In this document: positions 1 through 51,796 of the stretch, in pieces
How positions within the stretch are numbered: the first letter of the stretch is position 1
How the letters are laid out: each line of letters begins with the position of its first letter
From: an uncultured bacterium
Lineage (GTDB): Bacteria > Actinomycetota > Acidimicrobiia > Spongiisociales > ZC4RG35
Direction: 5' to 3'
DNA: 64,000 nt
Assembly (NCBI GenBank): GCA_963792365.1
Contig: CAWBVW010000001.1
Location: forward strand, 359,312-423,311
Made by a program: the position numbers and the translations under genes
Notes under the pieces: generated by a model
Told to the model about the DNA's origin: nothing
The model's input: only the letters and a program-made list of their open reading frames with translations
Database searches by the model: none

Positions 1-361
1 AGCGACCTTCGCCGAAGCCACACACCCCGTGCAGACGCTCGCAATGCGGTTCACGGCCGGCGGTCACAGCATCGCTTACACAGGTGACACCGGCCCCGCC
101 GGCGACTGGACGACCGTCGCCGGCGACGCCGACCTCTTCCTATGTGAGGCGACCTTCGTGGGCACCCGAGACGACCACCCCTATCCTTATCATCTCAACG
201 CTTTCGAAGCCGGGCAGATCGCGGCGGCAAACGGCGTCGACCGCTTGGTTCTGACCCACATTCCGATCCACTGGGACCCGGCCCGATCGCTGAGCGAGGC
301 CGAAACCCACTTCGACGGTGATCTGGGGCTCGCCGAGCCCGGTGCCTCCTTCTCGATCTGA
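1..361 (+). CDS. MBL-fold metallo-hydrolase (RNase Z/ElaC-like), C-terminal fragment. The gene starts upstream of the window.
   Basis: The reading frame is open from position 2 with no upstream stop in the window. The C-terminal motif ...VDRLVLTHIPIHW matches the conserved LvLTHxS region of MBL-fold hydrolases. Confidence 0.45.
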   Translation, partial: ATFAEATHPVQTLAMRFTAGGHSIAYTGDTGPAGDWTTVAGDADLFLCEATFVGTRDDHPYPYHLNAFEAGQIAAANGVDRLVLTHIPIHWDPARSLSEAETHFDGDLGLAEPGASFSI

Positions 362-464
362 CTCCTACGACTTACGCGATCGGTCCCCAGGCCGACGGGA
401 ATCCCGATCAAGGACGACAGAACGACGCCCACGGACGTGGCGGTCACCCTCTCTTTGGGATGCC

Positions 465-1514
465 GTGAGCGAAGACAAGTCCCAGAAAACTGAAAAGGCG
501 ACGTCGAAGCGCCGCCGTGACGCCCGCCGCAAGGGTCAGATCCCCAAGTCGACGGAGATCGGGGTCGCCGCGTCGTTCGTCACTGCTCTGATCGCCCTGC
601 GGGCATTCGGTCCGGCCACCGTCCGGATCTTGTTCGAGGACGCCCGTCACATCATCGGCTCGGCCGGCTCGAATCCCAGTCTCGGCACGGTTGCAGGGGT
701 GGCGGGCACCATGTTTCTCGTGGGGGTCGCGCCGTTTGTCGGGATCGCAGCGATCGCCGGAACCGCCGGCGCCGTCGCCCAGGTCGGCTTCGTCCTCACG
801 CCGGAAGCCGCCAAGCCGAAACTGTCCAACCTCAACCCCAAACGCGGGCTCGACAAGCTCAAGCCGGCGACCGCAACCTGGGAACTCGCTCGCACCACCT
901 TGAAGCTGGGGCTCTTCATCGCACTCGCCTGGGGCCCGGTTGTCGACGGCATCACCGAGCTCGCCGCCGTCAGGACCCTCGACCGCGCGATCTCCGACGT
1001 GTCGGCGGTCACCTGGGACGTTCTCGTGAGAGCGGCCCTGCTGGCGCTGCTCATCGGGCTCTCCGACTACGCCTTCAATCGTTGGAAGATGACGAAGGGG
1101 ATGCGCATGTCGAAAGAGGAGATCAAGCAGGAGTACAAGACCAGCGAAGGCGACCCCCTCGTCAAGGGCCAGCGGCGTCGCCGAGCCGCCGAGATGAACC
1201 GGAATCGGCTCATCAACGTTGCATCCGCCGACGTGGTGGTGACCAACCCGACACATTTTGCCGTGGCGCTGAAGTACGACCGCACGGAGCCCGCTCCACG
1301 TGTGGTTGCCAAGGGCACGGATCGACATGCCAAGAAGATCCGGAGGATGGCGGCGAGGCACGGCGTACCGATGGTCGAGAACCGACCCCTTGCGCGCAGC
1401 CTGTTCCGGCGCGTGAAGGTGGGCGGGTACGTTCCCACCGCGCTGTTCGAAGCCACCGCCGTCGTCCTGGCCGAGGGGTACCGCCGCCGGGGTAGAAGGC
1501 CGAGCGCAGCATGA
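465..1514 (+). CDS. flhB: Flagellar export apparatus protein FlhB
   Basis: N-terminus from the GTG at 465 reads (M)SEDKSQKTEKATSKRRRDARRKGQIPKS, the classic FlhB start. The C-terminal domain carries the NPTH autocleavage motif (VVVTNPTHFAVALKY). The stop overlaps the flhA start (ATGA). The ORF track's start at 318 is probably too far upstream. Confidence 0.85.
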   Translation: MSEDKSQKTEKATSKRRRDARRKGQIPKSTEIGVAASFVTALIALRAFGPATVRILFEDARHIIGSAGSNPSLGTVAGVAGTMFLVGVAPFVGIAAIAGTAGAVAQVGFVLTPEAAKPKLSNLNPKRGLDKLKPATATWELARTTLKLGLFIALAWGPVVDGITELAAVRTLDRAISDVSAVTWDVLVRAALLALLIGLSDYAFNRWKMTKGMRMSKEEIKQEYKTSEGDPLVKGQRRRRAAEMNRNRLINVASADVVVTNPTHFAVALKYDRTEPAPRVVAKGTDRHAKKIRRMAARHGVPMVENRPLARSLFRRVKVGGYVPTALFEATAVVLAEGYRRRGRRPSAA

Positions 1515-3562
1515 GGCGCGGAGCGGGAGCCCAGATGTTGACCCCATTGCTGCTCGTGGGCGTGGTCCTGATGATGGTGGTGCCGATGCCACCAGTGATG
1601 CTCGACGTGATGCTGGCAGCGAACTTCACGCTGGCCATCCTTGCGCTCCTTGCCGCCATGCTGCTGAAGGATTCGCTCGAACTGTCGGTGTTCCCGTCGT
1701 TCCTTCTCGTCGCCACCCTCACACGGCTTGCACTCAACGTGTCGTCGACGCGGCTCATACTGCTCAACGGATACGCCGGAAAGGTGATCGACGCATTCGG
1801 AACCTTCGTCATCGGTGGATCCGTGGTGGTCGGCCTGGTCGTGTTCCTGATCCTGGTGATCATCCAATTCGTCGTCATCACGAATGGCGCCGGCCGGGTG
1901 GCTGAGGTCGCAGCTCGATTCACTCTCGACGCCATGCCCGGCAAGCAGATGGCGATCGACGCCGATCTCGGGTCGGGTCTGATCAACGAAGCCCAGGCGC
2001 GGGAGATGCGGGCCAAGATCGCCAAGGAGGCCGATTTCTACGGCGCCATGGACGGTGCGTCCAAGTTCGTCAAGGGTGACGCCATCGCCGGCGTCATCAT
2101 CACGTCGATCAACCTGATCGGTGGGATGGCGATCGGGCTCGGATCGGCCGGGCTGAGTTTTGGCGAAGCGGTCGACACGTACTCACGCCTCTCGGTCGGC
2201 GATGGCCTCGTCTCGCAGATCCCGGCGTTGCTGATCTCGATCGCCACCGGTCTTCTCGTGACCAGGGTCGGCTCGGACAACGCCATGGGTTCCGATCTCG
2301 CCCGTCAGGTGTTCGGAAACCCCGACGCCCTCAGGATCGGCTCCATCGTCGTAACCGGGATGGGCCTGTTGCCCGGGCTACCAAAGCTTCCCTTCTTCGG
2401 GATCGCTGCGCTGCTGTTCTTCCTCTCCACACGCGCCGGCACCAACCCCGACGACGAGATTCCTCTCGACGGCGAGCCCGAGATCCGCACCAGTCCCGAC
2501 GACCCCGAAGCTCTCATCGAACGGATGCGCCTCGAGCCCCTGGAGCTCCACCTCTCCCACGAAATCCTCGATCTGGTGGACCCCGAGCGCGGTGGCGACC
2601 TCATGGAACGCGTCAGATCGCTCCGCCGGCAGATCGCCGACGAGCTCGGAGTGGTCATCCCATTGCTGCGCGTGCGAGACGACGCCACGCTCCCCGAATC
2701 GGCCTACAACATCCTCCTGCGCGGGATCGAGGTCGGCTCCGGTGTCGCACCCCGCGACCAACTCCTGGCTCTTCCGATGGGCGACGGGTCGGACTTGCGG
2801 GCGATGGGCGGGTCACCGACCACTGAACCGGTCTTTGGACTGGAGGCGTTCTGGGTCCCGGACTCTGCCCGCAGCGCAGCCGCCGCCACCGGCGCCACCG
2901 TCGTCGATCGCTCATCGGCCGTGGTGACCCACCTCGCCGAGGTGGTGCGAACCAACGCCTCCCAGCTCCTGAGCCGGCAGGACGTGTCGATGCTGCTCGA
3001 GGGGCTTCGATATGACGAGCCCATCCTCGCCAACGAGGTCGGAACCGACCAGCTTCCGCTCCAGACCCTGCATGCGGTACTCCGGGCGCTCCTCGACGAA
3101 CGGGTGTCCATTCGTGACATCGGCCGGATCATCGAGGCCGTGGCGTCCAAGGCGACCGAAACGCGGTCGGTCGAGGCGCTCGTGGCTGCGGCGAGGGTGT
3201 CCCTGGGATCGGCCATCGTCGGCAAGATCGCACCGGGGGGCCGCCTCAAGCTCATCACGCTCGAACCCGCCCTCGAAGCTGCATATCACGAGGCAATCCG
3301 CGAAGTCGACGGGACATCGCATCTGGTGCTCGATCCGGGCAAGCTCGAACGCCTCAGAGCCGACACGACGGCCGCGTTGTCGGCGGTGTCCGGCGAGCCG
3401 TTGGCGCTGGTCTGCAGCCTGGCCCTGCGCAAGCCCCTCCACAGAACCCTCACATCACTCGGCGTGGACCTCCCCGTGGTGGCCTACCCCGAGCTTCCCG
3501 CGCACCTGGAACTGATCCCGATCGGAGTGATCGAACATGGCGAACCAACCCACGCTGTCTGA
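1511..3562 (+). CDS. flhA: Flagellar export apparatus protein FlhA
   Basis: 683 aa with an N-terminal multi-TM domain and the conserved FlhA stretch ...FTLDAMPGKQMAIDADL...KFVKGDAIAG..., plus a large cytoplasmic C-domain. Translationally coupled to flhB. Confidence 0.9.
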   Translation: MRRGAGAQMLTPLLLVGVVLMMVVPMPPVMLDVMLAANFTLAILALLAAMLLKDSLELSVFPSFLLVATLTRLALNVSSTRLILLNGYAGKVIDAFGTFVIGGSVVVGLVVFLILVIIQFVVITNGAGRVAEVAARFTLDAMPGKQMAIDADLGSGLINEAQAREMRAKIAKEADFYGAMDGASKFVKGDAIAGVIITSINLIGGMAIGLGSAGLSFGEAVDTYSRLSVGDGLVSQIPALLISIATGLLVTRVGSDNAMGSDLARQVFGNPDALRIGSIVVTGMGLLPGLPKLPFFGIAALLFFLSTRAGTNPDDEIPLDGEPEIRTSPDDPEALIERMRLEPLELHLSHEILDLVDPERGGDLMERVRSLRRQIADELGVVIPLLRVRDDATLPESAYNILLRGIEVGSGVAPRDQLLALPMGDGSDLRAMGGSPTTEPVFGLEAFWVPDSARSAAAATGATVVDRSSAVVTHLAEVVRTNASQLLSRQDVSMLLEGLRYDEPILANEVGTDQLPLQTLHAVLRALLDERVSIRDIGRIIEAVASKATETRSVEALVAAARVSLGSAIVGKIAPGGRLKLITLEPALEAAYHEAIREVDGTSHLVLDPGKLERLRADTTAALSAVSGEPLALVCSLALRKPLHRTLTSLGVDLPVVAYPELPAHLELIPIGVIEHGEPTHAV

Positions 3563-4328
3563 CACACCAACCGTCACCATCGAGGCCGCCACGGTCGAAG
3601 AGGCACTTGGTCGCCTGACCGAGGAAGTCGGCCCCGGAGCCCGGATACTGCGAGCCGACCGAGTGCGGCGCGGCGGCATCGCCGGGTTCTTCGCCCGCGA
3701 GATGGTCGAGATCGAAGCGGAGGCCCCCGGCGGCGAGGGTGTCGACGGCGCGTTCGATCGGATGCTGGAAGCCGCCGAGAGCGCCGACGAGCGCCCTGTG
3801 CTCAACGACTCTCTCACCCGCCCCACCCTCGACTCGGGACCGCCGCCGGCGCTCACTTCACAGGCCCGACCGGTGACCACCACTGCGTGGGACAGCGCCA
3901 GGATGCTCGAACTGGGCCTCCCAGGTGCGTTGGTGCAAGCCGTGGCCTCCCTCGACCCCTCCGACGACCTCGGCCACCTCACGGCGCTCGTAGAGGTTCT
4001 CACGCCCGTTTGCGGGTCGCTGCCCGCCGAGCCGATGCGGCTGGTCGGCGAACGCGCCGAGCGCCTCCGCTCGGCGATCGCCATCGATGAGAGCGATACC
4101 GGTCTCATCCATCTCGTCGTAGGTGACGAGCTCCCGGCAACGCTGCCCGGGGTGCCGGCCGTGGTGTCGTGGGTCAGCGACGGCGGCGTCGCTCGAGCGA
4201 TCAGCCTGGCGCTGGGCACAGGAGCCTTGCTGGGCTACGGCATCGGAAGCTCCTTCGGCGCACCGGTTCGTCGAATCGCTCCCCTCGACGCCGCAATCGC
4301 GATTCGCGAGCTCATGGACCGGACATGA
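3537..4328 (+). CDS. Hypothetical protein with an FlhF N-terminal (B-domain)-like region and no SRP-GTPase domain
   Basis: The N-terminus TVTIEAATVEEALGRLTEEVGPGARILRADRVRRGGIAGFFAREMVEIEA resembles the start of FlhF. No G1-G5 GTPase motifs follow. Overlaps the flhA 3' end by 26 nt. Confidence 0.5.
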   Translation: MANQPTLSDTPTVTIEAATVEEALGRLTEEVGPGARILRADRVRRGGIAGFFAREMVEIEAEAPGGEGVDGAFDRMLEAAESADERPVLNDSLTRPTLDSGPPPALTSQARPVTTTAWDSARMLELGLPGALVQAVASLDPSDDLGHLTALVEVLTPVCGSLPAEPMRLVGERAERLRSAIAIDESDTGLIHLVVGDELPATLPGVPAVVSWVSDGGVARAISLALGTGALLGYGIGSSFGAPVRRIAPLDAAIAIRELMDRT

Positions 4329-4564
4329 ACGGACCTCAATACCTCAAGCGGCTCGTCGCCATCATCGGGCTCTTGCTGATGATGCCCATCGGGTACCAGC
4401 TGATCATGGGGACGGTGACACCGACGGATGCGGCCATCCGGGCAGGCGCGCTGTTCGCCGGCGTTGTCATGGCGCGCAAGGTGGCCGACCTCGCCCCAGG
4501 CGGCCGGACCGTGCTGATTCCCGTCCAGGAGGAACGCCCGGTCGAGACTCCGGTCGAGGGCTGA
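4325..4564 (+). CDS. Small hydrophobic protein (~79 aa, one or two TM)
   Basis: ATG at 4325 overlaps the stop of the preceding gene. MNGPQYLKRLVAIIGLLLMMPIGYQLIMG... has a strong hydrophobic helix. GC3-rich codons. Confidence 0.35.
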   Translation: MNGPQYLKRLVAIIGLLLMMPIGYQLIMGTVTPTDAAIRAGALFAGVVMARKVADLAPGGRTVLIPVQEERPVETPVEG

Positions 4565-4927
4565 CCGCGCACCGCCCACACTCCGAGGAGAGTCCGTACG
4601 CCGGCCCGGTCAGGCCGACCTCAGGTTCTCCCACTTGCCATCGCTGAAGCGTCTCGAGGAGGTCGAGGATCGACCGAGCGCCGCACACGGCGACGACCGA
4701 AACACCCGCTCACCTCTCGAGGCCGCGGCACTTCCGTTGGTAGGCATTGCCCCTGGTCCAAGAACGAGCACGCCCGCCAGAGGCGTCTCAGTGGTCTCTC
4801 ATCGCATCGCAGTCCATCGCCGGGCGTCCTCGATGGGGATGAGCTCTGCTGACTCGCTGGAGCCCGGCTACCCACCGAGATCCGACAGGTTCACCCGGCG
4901 AGGTACGACAGGCTCGGCGTGATGTCT

Positions 4928-5734
4928 TCAGCCCGCGAGCGGGTCGGCTTGGAGTTCCGACTCCGGCAGACTCGCGAACACCTGCGCCGTGGCTTCGGCG
5001 AAGAGGCGGGACTCCGTTTCGACGAACCCAACATGACCGTCGAGGCCGAGGCGTTTCATTGCGATCCGGAGCGGCATGTCCAGACATCGTGTCGGGGACT
5101 CGTCTTCGACAGCGCACATCGCTGCGGCGAGCGCCCGCTCCATCTCGGTGACGGGCTCGTGATGAGCTGCGACGGCCGCCACGATGTCGGTGGGGAGATT
5201 CCACTCGGCGAGCATCTTGGTGCCCATCTCGAGATGATCGGTTTCGTACGCCATTCGTTCACGACGCAACATCTGCTGGTCCTGGTACCCCCGCATCCAC
5301 TGCTTCCGACGCCACGCCAGGAAGCCCTCGTCTGTAGTGAGCAGCCCGGCCGTACCGGCAGCGGAGAAAAGCCCCGCCACGAACAACTGCTCGTTCTCGG
5401 CCCGTGAGAAGCCGAGGAGGCGTCCGATCAACTTGGCTGCACGGCCCACGACGAGAGACTCCTCCCACAGCTCGGGCGCACCCCAGGTATCGACGAGATC
5501 GCGGTTCAACGACGCCATGGCCAGAGCACCCACCGAGCGGCAGCCGACTCGGATGACAGCCTCCATCACCGTTCCCACGGGATACACCGCGCCGACGTAC
5601 GCAGAGTTGGCGTACCGCACGACCGCCGCTGCCGTGTCGGGGATCGTGGCCACGCGTGCAGCTACCTCATACAGGTCCGGATCGTTGGCCATAGCCGCCG
5701 TCCAGAGCTCTACTTTTCGCGAGCCGAGGTCCAT
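4928..5734 (-). CDS. HDOD domain-containing signalling protein
   Basis: 268 aa. The HDOD-like core ...IPDTAAAVVRYANSAYVGAVYPVGTVMEAVIRVG...LNRDL... has the HD motif degenerate (AGLFSAAG). Paralog of the next gene. Confidence 0.65.
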   Translation of the reverse strand: MDLGSRKVELWTAAMANDPDLYEVAARVATIPDTAAAVVRYANSAYVGAVYPVGTVMEAVIRVGCRSVGALAMASLNRDLVDTWGAPELWEESLVVGRAAKLIGRLLGFSRAENEQLFVAGLFSAAGTAGLLTTDEGFLAWRRKQWMRGYQDQQMLRRERMAYETDHLEMGTKMLAEWNLPTDIVAAVAAHHEPVTEMERALAAAMCAVEDESPTRCLDMPLRIAMKRLGLDGHVGFVETESRLFAEATAQVFASLPESELQADPLAG

Positions 5735-5848
5735 GATGCTTCAGTATCTCCTTGGAGGACCGGTCGGCCGTTTCGGACGCTGGAAAAGACCTCTGGGGGC
5801 CTTGATCGGGCCTGTAGGCCGAATCCGGCGCCCAGGCGTTGATCTATG

Positions 5849-6664
5849 TCAACCGACTCGCTCAGCTACCCGCTTCGACGCAACTGCGGGTCTTGGTGAC
5901 TCGCCCTCACCGAACACGGCCTCCACGTACCGAAGCGCCGCGACGCGCACGGAATCCACGTGCTTCGACAGTCCGATCTCGTCCATCGCTGCGCTGAACG
6001 AAGTGTCATGACACCTCGCTGCCGACGCCGAATCAGGGATGGTCATCCCCGCCCACAAGGCGAGATCGAACCGGTTCCGTGGCTCGTGATGAGACGCGAC
6101 CACGTCGATGATCGAAGTGGGCATGTTCCACTCGTCGAGCAGGCGAGACGCGGCGACCACGTGGTCGAGCTCAAATGCCATCCGCTCACGACGAAGCATC
6201 TGATCCTCGCTGTGCCCCTTCACCCATTGGCTCGCCCTCCACGAGAGGTAGCCGGCGTCCTGGGCCGTCAAGGCAGCGGCGCCGGCACTCGAGAAGAGAC
6301 CAGCGACGAACAGTGTCTCCGAATCGCGGCGGGGAAAGCCGTAGAGCCGACCGATCATTCGGGCTGCTCGGCCCACTGCGAGAGCGTCCGCTGCCAACTC
6401 GGGGATATCCCACCGATCGGCCAACTCACGATTCAGCGAAGCAAGCGCTATCGCTCCGACCTGACGACCACCGATCCGCACGACTGCGTCCAGCACACTC
6501 GCAACGGGGTATACCGCACCGACGTAGGAGGAGTTGGCGAAACGGATGACTGCACTCACCGTGTCCGGGATCGTGCCCAGCAGCGCTGCGATCCCGAACA
6601 CATCAGGCTCGTCATCCGAGGCCAACCGCCACAGTTCGAGTTTGCGCTGAACGACATCCATCAC
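5849..6664 (-). CDS. HDOD domain-containing signalling protein (tandem paralog)
   Basis: 271 aa, clearly homologous to 4928-5734 (LELW..A.D.PD...A...GTIPDT..AV.R.ANS.YVGAVYPV..V..AV.R.G.R.VGA.A.ASLNR). Confidence 0.65.
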   Translation of the reverse strand: MMDVVQRKLELWRLASDDEPDVFGIAALLGTIPDTVSAVIRFANSSYVGAVYPVASVLDAVVRIGGRQVGAIALASLNRELADRWDIPELAADALAVGRAARMIGRLYGFPRRDSETLFVAGLFSSAGAAALTAQDAGYLSWRASQWVKGHSEDQMLRRERMAFELDHVVAASRLLDEWNMPTSIIDVVASHHEPRNRFDLALWAGMTIPDSASAARCHDTSFSAAMDEIGLSKHVDSVRVAALRYVEAVFGEGESPRPAVASKRVAERVG

Positions 6665-6718
6665 GTCACGCTCCCCCGTCGACCAGGTCGACCGGGGCGA
6701 TAAGCGCTTTGCGGCAGC

Positions 6719-7606
6719 TCAGCCTGCTTCGTACAGACGGGTGTTGCCGGTGGTGGCGGACTCGAGCAGCGACTCCGCGTCGAGTCGGGTGCGCCAGTTC
6801 GATTGATCGGCCATGCGAGCCACGTACGCAGCTCGTGCGCGCTTACCGGGCGCTGAATCCGGGGAAGGCTCGACGCCCTCGTACTGAGTCGAGAAGAACG
6901 AGCGCATGGCCATCAGCGCCTCCGACCGGATCTGACTGACCCGGGCCTCTGTGAGACCGAGATCGTCGGCGATGTCCTGAAGGAGCTCGCCTTCGAGGTA
7001 GTACCGGGAGATCACCTCGGCTTGTACGGTCGGAAGATGGCGAACGGCGTCCACGAGCGAACCCCGCAGCTCACGCTGCTCCAGCGCCACCTCGGGGAGC
7101 GTCTCCACCCGCTCTTCTTCGACGCGGTCGGCAAGCGAGGTTTCGTCAGTCTCACTCGGCTGGTCGAGGTGGAGCAGTGTGCTGGTGGCGGCGTGGGCCT
7201 GCCGGCTGTTGAGCTCGTCGACGGAGATGCCCAGGAAGGCGGCGATCTCGTTGGTGGTGGGAGGCCGTCCATGCTGCTCTTCGAGGCCGGTCTGGGTCTC
7301 CTGGATCTCGCGGAGCCGGCGGCGGACTGATCGGCTCGCCCAGTCCCGGGTCCGGGTTGAGTCGATGATCGCGCCGCGAATGCGGATCGCGGCGTAGCGG
7401 GCGAACGGAATCCCGGATTCGGGATCGTACCGCCGGCTGGCTTCCACGAGGCCGAGTGCGCCTGCGTTCCAGAGTTCAGAACGGTCTACGTGACGCGGAT
7501 ACCGCGCCGACACCTCGCTGACGATGTGGCCTACGAGGTCAAGGGTTTCTGAGACGAGCTCGTTCTGCTCCTCTGCCGTCAACGCTGCCATGATGTGGAC
7601 CCCCAA
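6719..7606 (-). CDS. fliA: Flagellar sigma factor FliA/WhiG (sigma-28) with a ~60-aa C-terminal extension
   Basis: Sigma-70 regions 2 to 4 are recognisable (...ELWNAGALGLVEASRRYDPESGIPFARYAAIRIRGAIID..., region 4 ...LQDIADDLGLTEARVSQIRSEAL...). The start may be the TTG/ATG alternatives around 7590-7606. Confidence 0.8.
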   Translation of the reverse strand: MGVHIMAALTAEEQNELVSETLDLVGHIVSEVSARYPRHVDRSELWNAGALGLVEASRRYDPESGIPFARYAAIRIRGAIIDSTRTRDWASRSVRRRLREIQETQTGLEEQHGRPPTTNEIAAFLGISVDELNSRQAHAATSTLLHLDQPSETDETSLADRVEEERVETLPEVALEQRELRGSLVDAVRHLPTVQAEVISRYYLEGELLQDIADDLGLTEARVSQIRSEALMAMRSFFSTQYEGVEPSPDSAPGKRARAAYVARMADQSNWRTRLDAESLLESATTGNTRLYEAG

Positions 7607-7730
7607 ATGCGTGCCGAGTGCCTTACGTTTCAGGGATCGGACAATCGGGGGCTAATCCTTGAGGGTCATATTTCCATAGTCACTCGCCCGAACCACGAAA
7701 CCTCGGCGCGATCGGCCGACAGGTCCCTCG

Positions 7731-8180
7731 ATGACAACGGCACTGGCCTCTCCCACGTACTACGACCTGATCGGTCTCCTCGCCAACGAACGCCGACTCC
7801 TCGAGCGGCTTCTGTTCCGTCACGCCGAGATCTCGATGCTGATCGCCGCAGGCGAGCATCGATTCGTCGGCCGAGCCGTCGACGAGGCCCTCGAGGTCGA
7901 GGCCGAGCTCGCCGCATGTGATCTCACCAGGGCAATGATGCTCGTGGGGCTCACGCCTCGCGGTGACGACATGTCGATGGCCGAGCTCATCTCCGAGGCA
8001 CCCGCCGAGTTCCAGGCGCCCCTCGGCGATCTGACCCGCGACATGAAGCGAATCATGGCCCAGGTGGACAAATATCGTCGCGAGGCGGCAGCTTGGGCCG
8101 GCGAACGAGCCGAGCAGGTTCGCCAGGCCATCCAACGTTTTGGCGCCGATACCTACTTGGACGGTCGATTGGGGTCCTGA
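7731..8180 (+). CDS. FlgN-like flagellar chaperone family protein (paralog of flgN at 11184-11705)
   Basis: 149 aa. The block ERRLLERLLFRHAEISMLIAAGEHRFVGRAVDEALEVEAEL aligns with ERQLLEHLLFKLIEARLVLAADEARFLPQAMREVEAIVDRV of the flgN product. Convergent with csrA; the two 3' ends overlap by 28 nt. Confidence 0.5.
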   Translation: MTTALASPTYYDLIGLLANERRLLERLLFRHAEISMLIAAGEHRFVGRAVDEALEVEAELAACDLTRAMMLVGLTPRGDDMSMAELISEAPAEFQAPLGDLTRDMKRIMAQVDKYRREAAAWAGERAEQVRQAIQRFGADTYLDGRLGS

Positions 8181-8413
8181 AGCTTGAGTCCGGTCGCCTT
8201 CGTGGACAGCAAGCTCGACTTGAGGTCGGTGGAAGCGGCGGCCGCACGGTTCTCAGCAAGCACCTGCTCGTAGATCTCCGCACGATGGACCGCGAGACTG
8301 CGCGGGGCATCGACACCCACTCGTATCTGACCGCCTCGAACCTCGAGAATGGTGATCACCACATCGTTTCCGATGACGATGGACTCGCCGGCTCTTCTGC
8401 TCAGCACCAGCAT
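8153..8413 (-). CDS. csrA: Carbon storage regulator CsrA
   Basis: MLVLSRRAGESIVIGNDVVITILEVRGGQIRVGVDAPRSLAVHRAEIY is the canonical CsrA fold sequence. The internal ATG at 8413 overlaps the fliW stop. The 167-aa ORF-track version carries a spurious N-terminal extension. Confidence 0.85.
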   Translation of the reverse strand: MLVLSRRAGESIVIGNDVVITILEVRGGQIRVGVDAPRSLAVHRAEIYEQVLAENRAAAASTDLKSSLLSTKATGLKLQDPNRPSK

Positions 8414-8805
8414 CAGCCGGCACTCACAGGCAGCAGCGCCCGGATCGGGTAGTCCTGGTCGGTCAGTACGACCTGACGTCCCATCCGGGTCTTCACGTTG
8501 ACGATGAACGGTCCCAACAGATTCATGTGTGCACTCTTGCGGTCGGCGTCCAGCGTAACGGCGCAGAACACGACCGCATCCTGTTCCTGTTCGATACCCA
8601 GCCCTGCCTGGTCGACGTCGGTGAGCTCGGGGGCATAGTCGGGAAAGAACAGCCACGGCACGCCAACGACGATCGCCAAGTCGGGATCATCGACGTTCTG
8701 GAGCAGCTGGAAAGCTCCGTCATCGACGAGTTCGACGAGTTGGAAGCGATGGGCATCCGGGAACCCGGGAATCCCATCGTCGAACTCCAGATACTGCTCA
8801 TCCAT
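8413..8805 (-). CDS. fliW: Flagellar assembly factor FliW
   Basis: 130 aa, acidic, FliW-like (…FQLVELVDDGAFQLLQNVDDPDLAIVVGVPWLFFPDY…FIVNVKTRMGRQVVL). Sits in the conserved flgL-fliW-csrA arrangement. Confidence 0.8.
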   Translation of the reverse strand: MDEQYLEFDDGIPGFPDAHRFQLVELVDDGAFQLLQNVDDPDLAIVVGVPWLFFPDYAPELTDVDQAGLGIEQEQDAVVFCAVTLDADRKSAHMNLLGPFIVNVKTRMGRQVVLTDQDYPIRALLPVSAG

Positions 8806-8913
8806 CGTCGGCTACTTCCTCGATCGGCACGTGCAGGGAATGAGGGTAGTGGCCCGGGCCCTCGGTAGCCGGTAGGGACGGTGTTTCGCTCAGTCGGACG
8901 GGTCGAAGTGGGC

Positions 8914-9807
8914 TCAGCTGAGGAACGACGCCAGCGAGGGCTGTAGGGACTTGGCAAGGGCGCTCTGTGCCGCCTGATAGGCCGTCTCCTGAATCTGAAG
9001 CTCCATGATGGCCCTGGCCATGTCTGTGTCCTCGGTCTCGGACAGCGCGGTTCTCAAGCTGACCTCGTCCGCCTGTGCACGGAACGCCGCCTTCTCGATT
9101 CGATTGGCCGCTGCGCCAACCGTGGCACGGGCGGTGAGCATACGGTTCATCGACCGATCGACCTGATCGATGGCCGCTCCGATGCCCGCTCGGTCCTGGC
9201 TCCTGAACGCAGTCTCCAGGTTGTCGAGCAACGTGAAGACGTCCTCACCGGCACTGAAGCCGAACACCACGTCACCAGTCACGTTCACCTTGACCACGTC
9301 GTTCTCCGACACCCGACGTGTCACCTCACCAGTGTCGCCCTGGTAGGTCCAGGCGCCGGCGACCTTGGCGACGGCATCGCCGGGACGGAAGCCCGAGAAC
9401 AGGGGGCGGCCGTTGATCTTGGCGTTGGCGAGGGACTGCACCGACTCTCGGATTTCGGCGATCTCGACGGCCATTGCTTCCATCTCGACTGATCCAGCGG
9501 TGCCGTTACCTCCGAGGACTGCAAGCTCACGCACGCGCTGGAGCTGTTCGACCATGGTCCCCATGCGGGAGTCCGCCAGTTCGGTCCAGAGCATCCCGTC
9601 ATCGGCGTTGCGCTGCGCCTGGGCGTTCGCCGCGAGCGCTGCGCGCATGCCGAGCGCCGTGTTCATACCTGCTACATCGTCACTGGCGACGTGGATGCGA
9701 CGCCCGGTGGCAAGATCGCGCTGCGATCGTTCGAACTCCCCGATGCGAGTGTTCATTCGCTGGACAGCGAGGTCGACCATCATTCGGTTGGTGATCCTCA
9801 TGTTCAT
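8914..9807 (-). CDS. flgL: Flagellar hook-associated protein 3 FlgL
   Basis: 297 aa. The flagellin-family N-terminus MNMRITNRMM...SDDVAGMNTALGMRA...LQRVRELAVLGGNGT and a C-terminal flagellin-like helix. Directly downstream of flgK. Confidence 0.85.
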   Translation of the reverse strand: MNMRITNRMMVDLAVQRMNTRIGEFERSQRDLATGRRIHVASDDVAGMNTALGMRAALAANAQAQRNADDGMLWTELADSRMGTMVEQLQRVRELAVLGGNGTAGSVEMEAMAVEIAEIRESVQSLANAKINGRPLFSGFRPGDAVAKVAGAWTYQGDTGEVTRRVSENDVVKVNVTGDVVFGFSAGEDVFTLLDNLETAFRSQDRAGIGAAIDQVDRSMNRMLTARATVGAAANRIEKAAFRAQADEVSLRTALSETEDTDMARAIMELQIQETAYQAAQSALAKSLQPSLASFLS

Positions 9808-9813
9808 CTCCCA

Positions 9814-11184
9814 TTACCTCCCAACGATGCCCATTCGATTGATCACAGTGTCGAGCGCCTGGTCGACGGTCGTGATGACCCTCGCCGCCGCCTCGTACAT
9901 CCGCTGGAACTCGATGAGACTCACCATTTCTTCATCAACTGACACGGCATGACTCGAGGACCTGGCGAGGTCGGCAGCCGACGAGAGACCGGCCTGCGTC
10001 TCCGACGACATGCGGGCGGTCGCCGATTCCTGTCCCAGGGCCGTCACAAACGTTCGATATGAATCCAGCAACGACTGCGTGCCACCGGATGCCGAAAGCG
10101 TCGATCGAAGATCGGACAGGCGTTGGGCGTTGGAGCCGTCGAAGGTGGGATACGGGGGTCCGGCCGACGATGCCGTCGCCACGTCGGCGGGCGCAGTGAT
10201 GACCACCCTGAAGGTGGTGGCGGGCGAACCGGCGTCGAACGTCACGAGCGGACCACCTGGAGCGCCGGCAGCCGTGAACCCGGCGGCGTGCGTGGTGTTC
10301 AAGGCATCGGTGAGATCTCTCACGAAGTCGTCGAGCCGCGTGATCATGGCCGGGACGTCCTCCGTGACCGAGAGCTGCAATCCGCGCAACTCACCGCCGG
10401 GGACCAGTGCAACGCCACTGGCATGAAGCACCTGCCCCGTGCCCTCATCGTAGGAGAGCGGACGGGAGGTGGACCCGTTCACGAGCGAGATACCGCCGAT
10501 CATCACCCTGGCGTTGCCATTGTCTTCGATAGCCACGCTGACACCTGCGAGCTCCGACAGACGGTCGAGCAGAATGTCACGTTGATCCATCAGATCGTTC
10601 GGCGAGCCGGGGGCGGTGGACGCGTCGAGGATCGCAACGTTCAGCTTCGCCACCTGATCCAAGGCGTTGTTGATCTCTTGGATGGTCGAACGAATCGAGA
10701 CCACGCCGTCCTGTCGAAGGGAGTTCAGTCCAGTACCCACAGCGGCTACTCGCCCGGTGAGCGCACCCAGTTGTTCGATGACGGCGACGCGGGAGGCTTC
10801 ATCGGACGGGTTCAGGGCCAGATCCTCGAAGGCGTCGAACACCGATCCGAGTTCTGCTGTGACGCCCATCTCAGGCTCGGCCAAGATCTGTTCGGCCCGG
10901 TCGAAGAACGACGCACGCGCTTCGATGTTGTTCCTCGCTGAGACACTCGACCGATACCGGGCGTCGAGAAAGGTGTCGCGCACCCGGTTGATGTCAGTCA
11001 CCTTCACTCCCAACCCGACCTGACCGTTGGGGGTCATACGGGGATACCGCGACGCCATGTCGACCCGCTGGCGCGTGTATCCGGCGGTGTTGGCGTTCGA
11101 CACATTGTGGCTGGCGGTGTCCATCGCGAGCTGGGCCGCTCGCAGTCCGCTGAGCGCAACATGCAGCGCCGAAAAATCCGCCAT
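9814..11184 (-). CDS. flgK: Flagellar hook-associated protein 1 FlgK
   Basis: 456 aa. N-terminus MADFSALHVALSGLRAAQLAMDTASHNVSNANTAGYTRQRV matches FlgK. The C-terminal flg rod/hook helix ...MVSLIEFQRMYEAAARVITTVDQALDTVI is present. Confidence 0.9.
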   Translation of the reverse strand: MADFSALHVALSGLRAAQLAMDTASHNVSNANTAGYTRQRVDMASRYPRMTPNGQVGLGVKVTDINRVRDTFLDARYRSSVSARNNIEARASFFDRAEQILAEPEMGVTAELGSVFDAFEDLALNPSDEASRVAVIEQLGALTGRVAAVGTGLNSLRQDGVVSIRSTIQEINNALDQVAKLNVAILDASTAPGSPNDLMDQRDILLDRLSELAGVSVAIEDNGNARVMIGGISLVNGSTSRPLSYDEGTGQVLHASGVALVPGGELRGLQLSVTEDVPAMITRLDDFVRDLTDALNTTHAAGFTAAGAPGGPLVTFDAGSPATTFRVVITAPADVATASSAGPPYPTFDGSNAQRLSDLRSTLSASGGTQSLLDSYRTFVTALGQESATARMSSETQAGLSSAADLARSSSHAVSVDEEMVSLIEFQRMYEAAARVITTVDQALDTVINRMGIVGR

Positions 11185-11705
11185 CAGAGCACCTCATCGA
11201 TGTGGGTGGGAAGAACGGCAGTCTGGCGACCACGAGTTCCGCTTGGTGTGTACGTACCGGCGTCCTGACTCCCCAGCAACGTTCCGAGCGTGTCTGAGAG
11301 GCTCTGCACTGCGAGCCCGGCAAGACGTCGATTGTCGAGCGAGGCCTGTTCGATCTCGGTGGTGAGCCGTCGGAAGTGATCCTGATGCTCCTGGAACATG
11401 GTTCGAAAGGGCTCGGGTGACCAACCGACGAGGAACTTCATGGTGATCCGGTCTTCTGGCTCGCCGATGGCATCCGCCAGTCGTTGCACCGCAACCCGGC
11501 GATGACCCTCTCCGAACCGGACGCGGTCCACGATCGCTTCCACCTCGCGCATCGCCTGCGGAAGGAAACGCGCCTCGTCAGCCGCAAGTACGAGGCGCGC
11601 CTCGATGAGCTTGAAGAGGAGGTGCTCGAGCAGCTGACGCTCGGCGTGAAGCGTCTCAGCGAGCTCGGCCAGCTGTTTGCGGTAGGCGATGCTCATCGTC
11701 AGCAT
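11184..11705 (-). CDS. flgN: Flagellar export chaperone FlgN-like
   Basis: 173 aa helical protein immediately upstream of and coupled to flgK (stop/start at 11184). Occupies the flgN position of the flgN-flgK-flgL operon. Confidence 0.6.
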   Translation of the reverse strand: MLTMSIAYRKQLAELAETLHAERQLLEHLLFKLIEARLVLAADEARFLPQAMREVEAIVDRVRFGEGHRRVAVQRLADAIGEPEDRITMKFLVGWSPEPFRTMFQEHQDHFRRLTTEIEQASLDNRRLAGLAVQSLSDTLGTLLGSQDAGTYTPSGTRGRQTAVLPTHIDEVL

Positions 11706-11807
11706 CCTGTCGGCTCTCGATTTGGTGAATAAAGGCTTCCGGACGGTTTCTGTGAGCCTCGAGGATGGTCACTTCCCCTCGCCGACTGCACAGCTATCGT
11801 CGGGGGG

Positions 11808-12377
11808 GTGACACGCGTTCTTCCCGATGACCCGGCGGAGCTCAAGAACCTCTTGGATGCGGCTCTCGACGAGCTCGAACGACTGAAACTCACCTTGGAG
11901 GTTGTCGGCACCACCGATCTCGACGCAGGGATCCTCAATCGGACCGGTGTCCTGGAGTCACTGGAACGCGGTCGCAGATGGATGGCCCGCCGCGGTGACA
12001 TATACGGGCTGGTGGTCGTGCGGTTCCCGCTGCTCCGGCGGCTGGACCCCACCGACTCCGGCGACCTCGATCTGATCCAGCATCTCGCTGCGACGATCGG
12101 GGCGGGCGTCCGCGAGGTCGACGAAGTGGGACGCATCGACGACCTCACCTATGCGGCGACCCTGCAAGACCTCAAGCCGGGAACTATTCGGGTCGTGGTC
12201 GATCGCGTTCAGACGCTTCTCTCCAAGACGCTCATGTCGATGCCCGATCTCGGTCACTTCAAGCTGGGTGCAGTCGAAGTGCTCAATGCCGGTCACACAT
12301 CGGGCACGGTCCTCGAGGCAGCGATTCGGATATCCGACCAGGCATCCATCGACAACCACCGAGTCGGTCAGCTGTAG
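11808..12377 (+). CDS. Degenerate GGDEF-domain protein (likely catalytically inactive; candidate c-di-GMP-binding regulator)
   Basis: 189 aa. GGDEF-like scaffold D.LTGL.NR (DLDAGILNRTGVLESLE). The GGDEF/RYGGEEF site is replaced by GRIDDLTY and the DxDxFK metal site is absent. Divergent from the flgN operon. Confidence 0.5.
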   Translation: MTRVLPDDPAELKNLLDAALDELERLKLTLEVVGTTDLDAGILNRTGVLESLERGRRWMARRGDIYGLVVVRFPLLRRLDPTDSGDLDLIQHLAATIGAGVREVDEVGRIDDLTYAATLQDLKPGTIRVVVDRVQTLLSKTLMSMPDLGHFKLGAVEVLNAGHTSGTVLEAAIRISDQASIDNHRVGQL

Positions 12378-12465
12378 GTCTCGGACCGGTCGGCGCCCTT
12401 GGTCGGTGCCGGCACGAAGATGCAGCCACTTGAGGATCGGCGGCCGCGGCCGACAGGATGCCTCG

Positions 12466-12711
12466 ATGATCAGATTGCACCGCATCCGTGGCGAGGAGTT
12501 CTTCCTCAATGCCGACCTGGTCGAGAGCGTGGAGAACACGCCCGACACGGTCCTCACGCTCTTCGACGGGCGCAAGATCGTGGTTCACGAGAGCGCCGAA
12601 GAGGTGGCTGAGCTCATCACCACGTACCGAGCATCGGTGTTGCGTCTCGCCGACGCCGTTCGAGGTGGCGAGAGGAACCTGGTTGCGTTCCCCGGCGGAC
12701 GCGAAGACTGA
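12466..12711 (+). CDS. flbD: Flagellar protein FlbD
   Basis: 81 aa from the ATG at 12466. MIRLHRIRGEEFFLNADLVESVENTPDTVLTLFDGRKIVVHESAEEVAELI closely matches FlbD (MIKLTRLNGEEFYLNAELIE..TPDTVITL.NGKKY.V.ES.EEV). Confidence 0.75.
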   Translation: MIRLHRIRGEEFFLNADLVESVENTPDTVLTLFDGRKIVVHESAEEVAELITTYRASVLRLADAVRGGERNLVAFPGGRED

Positions 12712-12768
12712 CCCTCGGAGATCCGACTCTCCCACCGTCGGACGAGGAGGCCGGTCGTGGGCCGGGTG

Positions 12769-14280
12769 TCAGTGCTCTTCAGGCCGCATGGTCGGAAACA
12801 GGATCACGTCGCGAATGTGCGACTGGTCGGTGAGGAGCATCACCACCCGGTCGATTCCGATCCCCAGGCCACCTGAGGGCGGCATCCCGTACTCGAGAGC
12901 CCGCAGAAAGGCCTCATCCACCACGTGCGCCTCTTCGTCGCCGGCGTCCTTGGCTGCCGCTTGAGCAATGAATCGCTCCCGCTGGTCGATGGGATCGTTG
13001 AGCTCGGAATAGGCGTTGCCGTACTCCGATCCTGCGATGAACAACTCGAAACGCTCGGTCAGCAATGGGTCGTTCCGATGCCGTCGCGCCAGTGGCGAGA
13101 CCTCGACCGGATGGTCCAGCACGAAAACCGGATCCCAGATCTTGTGCTCCACCAGGTGATCGAACATGGCCTCGACGATCTTGCCAGCACCCCAGGCCGG
13201 GTCGACCTCGACACCGTGACGTTCGGCCAGATCGGCCAGCCCGTCACCGGGCGGCCAGACCGGCTCCCCGATCACCTCGGACACCAGGTCGACGAGACGA
13301 GCCCGCCGGAACGGCGGCGTGAGGTCGATCGTCCGGCCCTGATACTCGAAAGCGGTGGAACCGTGGATGGTGGTGGCGATCGCAGCAAAGATCTCCTCGA
13401 CCATCGTCATGATGTCGTGGTAATCGGCGTAGGCCTCGTACGACTCGAGCATCGTGAACTCCGGATTGTGCGTGCCGTCGACACCTTCGTTGCGAAAGAT
13501 CCTGCCGATCTCGAACACCTTCTCGAGGCCGCCGACGATCAGCATCTTGAGCGGGAGTTCGGTGGCGATTCGGAGGTACATGTCGAGATCGAGTGCGTTG
13601 TGATGGGTTTCGAAGGGCTTGGCGAGCGCTCCCCCCGCCTCGGCGAGCAACACCGGGGTTTCGACTTCCATGTACCCCCTCGACTCGAACTGCCGCCTCA
13701 TCTCCGAGACGATCAGGGACCGGGCGACAGCAACATCCCGCGACTGCGGGTTGACGATGAGATCCAGATATCGACGCCGCGACCGCGCCTCGATGTCCGC
13801 CAGGCCGTGCCACTTCTCGGGTAGCGGGCGCAGCCCTTTGGCAAGCAGGAGGAAGTCCGTCACGCGCACGCTGAGCTCGCCCTTGCGAGTGGTCACAACC
13901 TCCCCGGTCGCACCGATTGTGTCGCCGACGTCGAGGGCATCGAACTCATCGAGGCGGTCGAACAGCGTGTCTCGCTGGGCCATCAGCTGGATGCGACCCG
14001 ACCCGTCCTGGATCGTGGCGAACACGAGCTTTCCGAAGCTCCGGTGGAGCATGATCCGCCCGGCGACCGTGACCTCCACGCCGGTAGAGGCACCCGCATC
14101 CAGGCCCGCGAATTGATCGCGCACATCGGCAGCCAGGTGGGTTCGCTGGAACCCGACGGGATATGGGTCGACACCCGATGCCTCGAGCTCCTTCACCTTC
14201 TCGAGCCGCCGGGCGGTGAGGATGTGCTCTTCGAGGCCTGAGCCTTCGTGGTCGGATTCTGACGCTTCGATGTCTGTCAT
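12769..14280 (-). CDS. lysS: Lysine--tRNA ligase (class II)
   Basis: 503 aa. N-terminal OB anticodon-binding domain and class II core motifs (...FRNEGVDGTHNPEFTMLESYEAY..., ...GGLGIGIDRVVMLLT...). Confidence 0.95.
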   Translation of the reverse strand: MTDIEASESDHEGSGLEEHILTARRLEKVKELEASGVDPYPVGFQRTHLAADVRDQFAGLDAGASTGVEVTVAGRIMLHRSFGKLVFATIQDGSGRIQLMAQRDTLFDRLDEFDALDVGDTIGATGEVVTTRKGELSVRVTDFLLLAKGLRPLPEKWHGLADIEARSRRRYLDLIVNPQSRDVAVARSLIVSEMRRQFESRGYMEVETPVLLAEAGGALAKPFETHHNALDLDMYLRIATELPLKMLIVGGLEKVFEIGRIFRNEGVDGTHNPEFTMLESYEAYADYHDIMTMVEEIFAAIATTIHGSTAFEYQGRTIDLTPPFRRARLVDLVSEVIGEPVWPPGDGLADLAERHGVEVDPAWGAGKIVEAMFDHLVEHKIWDPVFVLDHPVEVSPLARRHRNDPLLTERFELFIAGSEYGNAYSELNDPIDQRERFIAQAAAKDAGDEEAHVVDEAFLRALEYGMPPSGGLGIGIDRVVMLLTDQSHIRDVILFPTMRPEEH

Positions 14281-36002: not shown

Positions 36003-36022
36003 GTCGAGTCTCACTGCGGAGG

Positions 36023-50754: not shown

Positions 50755-51796
50755 GAGGCGCAGGATACGCGTCAGTCGTCGGCCACCGGTCATAGGCTGC
50801 CGCTCGTCGGTCACCCGAGGTCGCGGGACCAAAACCCAACCCCCCGTTCGGCGTTGATGCCGGGGTCTGGGGTCGCGTCCCTAGACATCACTGGCCGTAC
50901 GCTGGACCGATGCCTTCATTGCACCGCCTCGGGTGGGTCTTGTTCATCGTCAGCTCGGCCCTCTTCACCTGGTCCGGATACCGGGCGCGGGACTGGATCG
51001 CGGTGGCGGGCAGCGTGGTGTTCGGCCTCGCATGCATCTTGTTCCTGCTTCCCGACCGGGAGTGATTCTCTTCACGCATTCCGAAGGTTGCCTTGACCCC
51101 GGCTTTAACGGAGCTCTCGTAGGTTGGAATCAAGCCCAGGCGTCAGGGACGGGTTCTTTTCTCTCTCCCTCCTCGCGTCCCGATGCCTGGACTCTCAAGT
51201 GGATGGTGCGGCGCCTCGGATCCTCCCCCGGGGCGTCGACTCCACCTCCTCCCCAGACCAACCGCGCCATGGTGCGACACGGGGTGCCTTCCCTCCATTG
51301 TCCCCATGGATGTGAAATCCCCCCTGCTTCGCCTCCGGCGAATCAGTCCGCCGGTCGCCTGCGGCGACCTGAGCGAGTTTGCTCCGCAAACTCGACCCGA
51401 CACCGCATGACCAGCAGGGCGCAATCTGCGCTCCACGTGTCAACGGTGAGGTGAGTCCAGCGAGGCAGCCAGGGGGTTTCGAAGTACACGTGTCGCACCA
51501 AGACGGACAGGACACCTTTTGAGGGACGCGGTCAGTGGACCGCGGTCAAATGCCTCTTTGATCTCGGCGCCCATCCAGATCACGGTGGTATCGCCCTCGT
51601 TGTGTCCCCCGTACAGGTGGGACTGGCTGCCGCAGGCAGCCAGGGGGGATTCCGTAATTGCCGTGTCGCCTCGAGACGCGACGGGACACTATCGGTAGCC
51701 GAGCTCCGATCGGTACCATGTTCTCATCGCATGACCACACGAAACCAACAGTCACCCGACAGACAGTCCTCACCGCCAGGATGGCGGGTGGAAGGT

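Follow-up and report, generated by a model that had tools for sequence, protein, structure and literature searches.

The window, a 64,000-nucleotide (nt) stretch of contig CAWBVW010000001.1 from an uncultured bacterium of the class Acidimicrobiia, carries two adjacent genes for stand-alone HDOD-domain proteins, here called HDOD-A and HDOD-B, directly downstream of fliA, the gene for the flagellar sigma factor sigma-28. The two belong to a small subfamily whose members follow fliA in every species-level locus that could be evaluated, and each of the two genes is preceded by a motif of the sigma-28 promoter type. We consider it moderately probable that they are late-class proteins whose transcription is driven by FliA and that act as non-catalytic adaptors feeding back on flagellar gene expression.

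HDOD-A (4928-5734, minus strand) encodes 268 amino acids (aa) and is the conservative copy, orthologous to the gene that most relatives have in single copy. HDOD-B (minus strand), the fliA-proximal and faster-evolving paralogue, extends from 5849 to either an ATG at 6661 (270 aa) or a GTG at 6664 (271 aa); the public gene call P0001 starts at ATG 6661, one codon after the GTG, and is 100% identical over its 270 aa. Codon-position guanine-cytosine (GC) content marked both genes as coding in a window of ~65% GC. An earlier note on this DNA, made from the letters alone, had described two adjacent same-strand open reading frames (ORFs) of about 270 aa at 4928-6664 and quoted the motif TIPDT..AV.R.ANS.YVGAVYPV; the ORFs are as described and the motif is present in both. 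The same note placed the pair between the export genes and fliA, and the coordinates bear this out: flhB (318-1514, plus strand, listed ORF 398 aa) and flhA (1511-3562, plus strand) lie on one side and fliA (6719-7591, minus strand) on the other. Its phrase "directly upstream" of the sigma-28 gene was mistaken, as the pair is downstream (3′) of minus-strand fliA. Transcription on the minus strand proceeds in the order fliA, HDOD-B, HDOD-A, with 54 and 114 nt between successive genes, and this block is convergent with the plus-strand genes flhB, flhA, a 263-aa ORF and a 79-aa ORF. FliA is 290 aa long from ATG 7591, with an open frame that reaches upstream to TTG 7606. Pfam matched its sigma-70 regions 2, 3 and 4, and its best NCBIfam match was TIGR02479 FliA_WhiG at 184.2 bits, slightly below the cut-off of 189.6.

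Both window proteins belong to the HDOD family and have its complete fold. The Pfam HDOD profile (PF08668; cut-off 22.9 bits) matched HDOD-A at 97.3 bits (E 1.1e-27) and HDOD-B at 85.9 bits, spanning profile positions 10 or 14 to 196 of 196, and is carried by 43/43 homologues; no NCBIfam model covers the two proteins. Pairwise alignment gave 51% identity over 249 residues without a gap (E 3e-96). The HDOD identity and the paralogy put forward in the earlier note were therefore both upheld, and profile searches assigned the two genes to no unrelated family. The AlphaFold2 (AF2) model of HDOD-A (predicted local distance difference test, pLDDT, 92.4; predicted template-modelling score, pTM, 0.89) is all-helical with 16 helices. 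Foldseek matched this model over its whole length to 3M1T and 3HC1 with template-modelling (TM) scores of 0.67-0.72, and the top matches, all at probability 1.00, were 3M1T, 3HC1, MmoQ, 3I7A, SadB and 3MEM. The best PDB sequence matches of the window HDOD proteins were likewise HDOD structures (3HC1, 3M1T). The C-terminal 70 residues, which lie beyond the Pfam model, were considered as an extra domain and rejected, as the usual fold of stand-alone HDOD proteins already includes them.

We take the HDOD consensus to be an N-terminal helix of the form "...DP/PD....(L/V)R.ANS..(Y/F)" together with "W.(L/F)P ... HH". The motifs IPDTAAAVVRYANSAYVG, EWNLP and AAHHEP were found and align to the equivalent motifs in 3HC1 and 3M1T. 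Across 42 family sequences, P32, D33, R40, N43, S44, W178, P181, H191 and H192 are invariant, and a further set of invariant residues is specific to the family (D135, W141, R142, Q145, E159, R216, C217 and H234).

The metal site of this fold is degenerate in the window proteins. The pocket of 3HC1 binds two irons via five histidines and one aspartate (PMC12075610). Compared to these ligands, the first histidine is replaced by E92 in HDOD-A and by D in HDOD-B, and the HD dyad by S124-A125 in HDOD-A, by S-S in HDOD-B and by S-C in most relatives. All 42 family members have S124, and the next position, 125, is occupied by C, A or S. The only metal-site residues retained are H167, H191 and H192. 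Neither protein carries the catalytic HD phosphohydrolase ligand set H...HD...H...HH...D, and a GYP motif is absent in both. With S-A or S-S standing where the HD dyad would be, enzymatic activity is unlikely for either HDOD-A or HDOD-B, and the non-catalytic nature suggested by the earlier note appears likely.

These residues bear on a rival explanation in which the HDOD proteins are active metal-dependent phosphohydrolases, for example a late-made nucleotide phosphodiesterase comparable to PdeH of E. coli. Some structures labelled HDOD, such as 3HC1, do bind a di-iron centre (PMC12075610), H167, H191 and H192 are kept here, and the Pfam profiles HD, HD_5 and Cas3_HD gave weak matches to both HDOD proteins. 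All of those matches are sub-threshold, however, with HD_5 scoring 15.3 bits against a cut-off of 27.2, and both the HD dyad and the first histidine ligand are missing from every family member. Together with the lack of a GYP motif, this makes a phosphohydrolase very unlikely.

To delimit the subfamily, we ran an exhaustive search of 1.84 billion cluster representatives with a family profile. It matched 18,184 representatives at E<=0.001, among them four with at least 274 bits and two short fragments with 111 and 95 bits; below the family, full-length scores drop abruptly to at most 97 bits, the generic HDOD level. A word-indexed search recovered 43 family members, and a functional name is attached to none of them. 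All relatives are metagenome-assembled genomes of uncultured bacteria labelled Acidimicrobiia or Actinomycetota. The HDOD subfamily is thus small, sharply delimited and seen only in metagenome-assembled genomes of Acidimicrobiia.

In a scan of one genome per species, mapped by tblastn, we located 18 family loci, all in Acidimicrobiia or unclassified Actinomycetota (related loci are given L numbers below). HDOD lies directly 3′ of fliA and on the same strand in 17/17 species-level loci with upstream sequence, and the same order was seen in further metagenome contigs, including L039 and L040. In L004/L013, L012 and L016, 2-6 kb of unrelated genes stand between HDOD and the flhA block and the fliA-HDOD adjacency is intact; inserted genes part HDOD from flhA, never from fliA. 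The adjacency holds even where identity has fallen to 42% for HDOD and 59% for FliA.

Homologues of FliA greatly outnumber the HDOD family, with 1281 at E<=1e-30. Six fliA loci of Acidimicrobiia are reduced (L035-L038, L041 and L042): they keep a FliA that is 64-69% identical and have no flgK, flgL, fliW, flhB or flhA at the locus, and HDOD is absent from 6/6 of them. Because these fliA-only loci are without HDOD, the HDOD gene tracks the flagellar apparatus genes and not fliA as such. The composition of the reduced loci suggests that the flagellum was lost and the sigma factor repurposed, as with WhiG. In these loci fliA faces response-regulator and Hpt-response-regulator genes in convergent orientation, and a FlgN-like remnant, a short CsrA of 59-61 aa and N149 (a FlgN paralogue, described below) may or may not be present.

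The tandem arrangement is confined to one clade, consisting of the window, L006, L001/L007, L008, L002/L003, L009 and probably L022, and a single HDOD copy is the commoner state among the loci. The duplication at fliA in the earlier note therefore holds for the window's subclade and does not extend to the other loci. A neighbour-joining tree groups the fliA-proximal B copies into a single clade (bootstrap 100) and places the distal A copies, also a clade (bootstrap 92), among the single-copy genes; the deeper position of the B clade is not resolved. The synonymous divergence (dS) between the window's HDOD-A and HDOD-B is 1.8, and the duplication is therefore old. Two independent close genome pairs gave ratios of nonsynonymous to synonymous divergence (dN/dS) of 0.03 for HDOD-A and 0.09-0.13 for HDOD-B, so purifying selection acts on both copies. 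The diverged copy is HDOD-B, which evolves at 3-4 times the rate of HDOD-A.

This faster rate is the one point in favour of the view that at least one of the duplicates is decaying towards a pseudogene, an outcome that the earlier note had itself named as possible. We reject it as scarcely credible because dN/dS is low (0.03-0.13), both copies of the old duplication have been kept, and the ORFs are intact: ten/ten copies examined, from five independent genomes, run full length, uninterrupted by frameshifts or stops.

In two relatives from the tandem clade the spacer between fliA and HDOD is expanded, to 365 nt in L001 (L001:7636-8001, equivalent to L007) and to 235 nt in L008 (L008:3556-3791). 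The extra sequence consists of short ACGTT/GCGTTCT-type repeats that together make up a long imperfect inverted repeat (minimum free energy -179 kcal/mol in L001) and looks like an inserted repeat element.

The fliA-HDOD spacers of relatives contain a recurring bipartite motif, CT(T/C)(T/A)..-N13-15-G(C/T)CGAC(N)GG, which ends 7-30 nt before the HDOD start. The same motif occurs 5′ of flgN in all loci examined with upstream sequence (12 relatives and the window), and no match was found upstream of the operon-internal controls fliW, the 79-aa ORF and the 263-aa ORF. To avoid circularity, we trained a weight matrix only on the flgN-upstream sites of nine other loci and scanned both strands of the 64-kb window with it. 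The six best matches precede HDOD-A, flgN, HDOD-B, N149, flhB and flbD, compared to an expectation from simulated sequence of 0.3 positions above 16 bits.

The highest-ranking predicted promoter is that of HDOD-A (5760-5788, minus strand; CTTTTCC-N13-GCCGACCGG; 17.9 bits); an AAGGAG ribosome-binding site follows it, and the orthologous promoter site is present in L001, L006 and L008. The predicted HDOD-B promoter (6675-6704, minus strand; CTTATCG-N14-GTCGACGGG; rank 3, 16.0 bits) lies inside the 54-nt fliA/HDOD-B spacer, and its equivalents rank 1-4 in the same three loci. Between them, at rank 2 with 17.0 bits, stands the predicted promoter of the flgN-flgK-flgL-fliW-csrA operon (11706-11734, minus strand), which serves as a reference for the regulon. 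The remaining three are predicted for N149 (7695-7723, plus strand; rank 4, 14.3 bits), flhB (371-399, plus strand; rank 5, 14.1 bits; likely start near 465) and flbD (12429-12457, plus strand; rank 6, 13.6 bits; ATG 12466). Across the related loci, the HDOD-upstream site was among the top three of its locus in 14-15/19.

We compared these sites with published sigma-28-type promoters. The flagellar WhiG1 consensus of Actinoplanes is CTCA-N16-17-GCCGAACT, and the sigma-28-type criterion comprises a -35 element CTCA/TAAA, a 16-17 nt spacer and a -10 element GCCGA with an invariant CGA core, at most 200 bp from the start codon (PMC12871210). Written as CT(T/C)(T/A)-N16-17-G(C/T)CGAC, the window motif matches the WhiG1 consensus and is near the general sigma-28 consensus, and by the published definition both HDOD-A (5760-5788) and HDOD-B (6675-6704) have a predicted promoter of the sigma-28 type.

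A related motif stands upstream of fliA itself (7634-7663, minus strand; CTCAAGGATT...TCCGATCC, in short form CTCAAGGATT...TCCGAT). It is conserved ~39-54 nt 5′ of the fliA start in the window and seven related loci and opens with CTCA, the reported WhiG1 -35 element (PMC12871210). This motif may be an autoregulatory promoter of the sigma-28/WhiG1 type. The -10-like GCCGACAGG ends 0-8 nt before the predicted starts of flgN, flbD and N149 and 7-10 nt before HDOD in many relatives; such short distances imply mRNAs that are leaderless or have very short leaders, or else wrongly placed start codons.

Other RNA signals in the region were weak. A hairpin that overlaps the HDOD-B site between fliA and HDOD-B lacks statistical significance (z -1.28), and a regulatory hairpin or terminator between the two genes was rejected on this basis. 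About 140 nt past the HDOD-A stop, a consensus scan found a terminator-like stem-loop with a T-rich tail (4770-4786, minus strand), which is weak evidence given one site observed compared to 1.1 expected, and the fold of the region 3′ of HDOD-A is not significant (z -0.10). The consensus scan found no sigma-70-type promoters, and a search for known RNA families in 1-13000 gave nothing above chance.

Taken together, the fliA-HDOD order in 17/17 loci, the absence of HDOD from six reduced loci and the sigma-28-type motifs before both genes lend good support to the motility link drawn in the earlier note; the synteny in relatives, with HDOD the next gene after fliA, agrees with it. The motility checkpoint module that the note suggested is a hypothesis. 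We weighed the rival explanation that there is no functional flagellar link at all, with the fliA neighbourhood kept by descent only and the promoter-like motifs arising by chance. All loci belong to a single class, so the synteny counts are inflated by common descent; in addition, the relaxed form of the motif is not enriched across the window. However, the adjacency has survived the divergence noted above as well as insertions on the far side of HDOD, and HDOD is lost exactly where the locus is without flagellar genes. Moreover, all six top weight-matrix matches precede genes of the flagellar locus, and the HDOD site is conserved in intergenic DNA in 14-15/19 loci. We therefore regard an association by descent alone as improbable.

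Based on this information, we infer transcription by FliA, a non-enzymatic adaptor role and an action on flagellar gene expression for the HDOD proteins. RNA polymerase containing FliA would transcribe the HDOD genes as late-class flagellar genes from their own promoters, with read-through from fliA possibly adding to their transcription. The proteins would work as non-enzymatic adaptors through protein-protein contact and would feed back on flagellar gene expression in the manner of CheP (with CheQ) and SadB (with AmrZ), both of which act on transcription regulators. HDOD-B, which diverged faster after the duplication, probably brings a second input or a changed specificity.

Several observations weigh against this reading. 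The promoter assignment is purely computational. GYCGACWGG is not enriched window-wide (7 observed, 6.2 expected), nor is the relaxed bipartite regular expression (11 observed, 8 expected); for this motif, only the position-specific weight-matrix analysis was informative. A good HDOD promoter site is lacking in L002, L019, L021 and L023. In L002, both sites are weak; in the other three the fliA-HDOD spacer is just ~13-50 nt, and co-transcription of HDOD with fliA is the simpler reading there. The six reduced loci still encode FliA in the absence of HDOD, and no co-variation was seen between the C-terminal tail of FliA and HDOD presence, so HDOD is not an obligatory FliA partner. The retained H167, H191 and H192, together with the invariant R216, C217 and H234, could form a ligand, metal or redox site, and from these residues the HDOD proteins could be small-molecule sensors.

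The FliA tail in question is an extension of ~50 aa at the C-terminus (residues ~240-290; 6719-6880, minus strand) with an invariant PGKRAR..Y...W..R. It is conserved in 11/11 aligned Acidimicrobiia homologues, with or without HDOD.

If the HDOD proteins act on one target, FliA is the most plausible single candidate, though a speculative one. A more specific version, which we regard as doubtful, makes HDOD a post-translational partner of flagellar sigma-28 (of the WhiG1 type) in Acidimicrobiia lacking FlgM. According to a 2026 preprint, nearly all actinobacterial flagellar clusters lack FlgM, the flagellar WhiG1 of Actinomycetota is not under RsiG control, and the WhiG1 partner "remains unclear" (PMC12871210). 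A Pfam scan at E<=1 gave no FlgM (PF04316) match for HDOD-A, HDOD-B, N149, the 263-aa ORF or a 131-aa ORF. The RsiG motif, including a relaxed regular expression, had no match in 15 locus proteins, and RsiG, PilZ or GYP motifs were found in none of the locus proteins. As a sigma partner, HDOD would be a folded, non-secreted anti-sigma factor, or an adaptor for proteolysis or activity; its FliA-dependent expression would give negative feedback, and the tandem duplicate would add a second signal input. Against a FliA target stand the loci that have FliA and no HDOD, the FliA tail that is conserved regardless of HDOD, and the restriction of the subfamily to Acidimicrobiia, which means that it could not fill this role across Actinomycetota in general.

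The likeness to FlgM and RsiG would be one of genetic logic only, FlgM and RsiG being small regulators tied to a sigma-28-family factor, with flgM itself sigma-28-dependent. There is no relationship in sequence or fold. FlgM is ~100 aa, largely disordered and secreted, whereas HDOD-A is compact, well-folded and 268 aa long; RsiG is a coiled coil whose E(X)3S(X)2R(X)3Q(X)3D motifs have no counterpart in the window proteins.

The conserved pocket residues also bear on a different rival, in which HDOD is a late-made receptor for cyclic di-GMP (c-di-GMP), another nucleotide, a metal or a redox signal and acts on the motor, stator or export gate, comparable to the class-3 gene ycgR of E. coli. The domain belongs to the HD/HD-GYP superfamily, three pocket histidines are kept alongside invariant D135, R142, Q145, E159, R216, C217 and H234, and HDOD presence follows the flagellar apparatus genes rather than fliA. 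The organism also has a GGDEF-EAL protein (35753-38506) and a degenerate GGDEF-like gene in the flagellar locus. We know of no HDOD protein for which binding to a motor component has been shown, and GYP, PilZ, RxxD and RsiG-type motifs are absent in both HDOD proteins. The literature on HDOD and c-di-GMP is contradictory: SadB of P. fluorescens was reported to bind c-di-GMP (PMC6543031), whereas SadB of P. aeruginosa does not bind it and mutations in its pocket are without effect (PMC12075610). Histidine mutants of I2285 in B. pseudomallei are also without phenotype (PMC9040570). On balance, we think a receptor of this kind unlikely, and favor the FliA-driven adaptor.

Among known systems, the closest structures are 3HC1 from Geobacter sulfurreducens and 3M1T from Shewanella amazonensis, which share the domain, the size (~270-300 aa) and the all-helical fold with the window proteins at only 19-21% sequence identity. 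In contrast to 3HC1, with its complete di-iron site of five histidines and one aspartate, the window proteins are without the HD dyad and the first histidine.

The closest functional parallels are HDOD proteins that affect motility. Cj0248 of Campylobacter jejuni, which we take to be CheP, gave a weak Foldseek match through its structure 1VQR (TM ~0.33-0.37). To our knowledge, neither fliA adjacency nor a sigma-28 promoter has been reported for CheP. CheP is also a stand-alone HDOD protein affecting motility and chemotaxis (PMC9665402, PMC9040570, PMC11004494), and the CheP/CheQ pair is described as dedicated to transcriptional control of the C. jejuni cheVAW operon (PMC9665402; Cha et al. 2019 via PMC9040570). 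It differs in that it comes from another phylum and its partner, the transcription regulator CheQ, is not a sigma factor.

In SadB of Pseudomonas (9QZK; Foldseek TM 0.66), another non-catalytic HDOD protein, the pocket is likewise degenerate. SadB serves as an adaptor in AmrZ proteolysis, controls motility versus attachment and needs no ligand (PMC12075610). Unlike the window proteins, it has an extra N-terminal YbaK-like domain needed for function and is not encoded in a flagellar locus.

Motility phenotypes have further been described for the HDOD proteins GsmR, I2285, PFL_0554 and PFL_5871 (PMC9040570, PMC11004494). Loss of GsmR in Xanthomonas or of I2285 in Burkholderia pseudomallei lowers flagellar gene expression or swimming; the conserved tryptophan is needed and the histidines are dispensable (PMC9040570, PMC6543031). 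The window family shares this tryptophan as the invariant W178 in the equivalent EWNLP motif. GsmR differs in having a receiver domain and I2285 in being paired with an EAL phosphodiesterase, and neither adjoins fliA.

An independent HDOD association with a flagellar locus is found in Burkholderiaceae metagenome-assembled genomes (L027:5287-6501, plus strand; also L028 and L029). There, a gene for a 404-aa degenerate EAL and HDOD protein sits between cheD-cheB-cheY and flhB-flhA. This protein shares an ENLFVAGLFS motif, in which FS stands in place of HD.

The link between HDOD and motility is thus already known: the domain is widespread and repeatedly motility-linked. A full-text literature search for HDOD with FliA and flagellar terms found no description of a fliA-tied HDOD subfamily. 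What is apparently new is an unannotated, sharply delimited HDOD subfamily that is tied to fliA, apparently within the FliA regulon, and that has undergone a lineage-specific tandem duplication. The genetic partner is unusually explicit here, as the HDOD gene always comes after the sigma-28 gene and carries a sigma-28-type promoter motif. Because FlgM is reported to be missing from nearly all flagellar clusters of Actinomycetota (PMC12871210), the locus offers a concrete, cheaply testable candidate WhiG1 regulator for one class of the phylum. HDOD-A and HDOD-B also provide a natural paralogue pair for studies of specificity. If HDOD were a sigma partner, it would represent a new class of sigma-factor-binding module; if the proteins are generic late-class motility modulators, the result is a useful yet ordinary annotation.

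The flagellar island of the window is compact (318-12711), and the remaining window holds housekeeping genes. The island comprises flhB, flhA, the 263-aa ORF, a small membrane ORF, HDOD-A, HDOD-B and fliA, followed by N149, csrA, fliW, flgL, flgK, flgN, a 189-aa degenerate GGDEF-like gene and flbD. The listed flhB ORF is probably overlong at its 5′ end, with FlhB-like sequence from ~465 (VSEDKSQKTEK...). The 263-aa ORF (3537-4328, plus strand) overlaps the end of flhA and is FlhF-like only in its first ~65 residues, without a GTPase domain. It is directly followed by the conserved 79-aa membrane ORF (4325-4564, plus strand), and the two are syntenic across all flagellated loci.

N149 (7731-8180, plus strand) encodes 149 aa and is divergent from fliA. 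Its AF2 model consists of three long helices, and hhalign matched it to the locus's own FlgN with 98% probability (E 2.8e-13). As the one unassigned neighbour of fliA, N149 was considered as a hidden FlgM or anti-sigma factor and rejected, as it is a FlgN paralogue. It is kept beside fliA in some loci that lost flgK and flgL.

The degenerate GGDEF-like gene (P189; 11808-12377, plus strand; 189 aa) is divergent from flgN and has IDDLTY in place of GGDEF. NCBIfam gave a weak match to SiaD (E 1.4e-5), and BLASTP aligned its product weakly but in register with the GGDEF-EAL protein of the window. Judged by size and position, a likely P189 homologue (182-202 aa, no Pfam match) is present in fliA loci without flagellar genes.

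Outside the island, the GGDEF-EAL protein (35753-38506, plus strand; 917 aa) indicates that the organism has c-di-GMP signalling. The window also encodes an ECF sigma factor with an adjoining zf-HC2 anti-sigma gene (25789-26794, minus strand) and two FtsH paralogues (20708-22636, minus strand; 51602-53755, plus strand).

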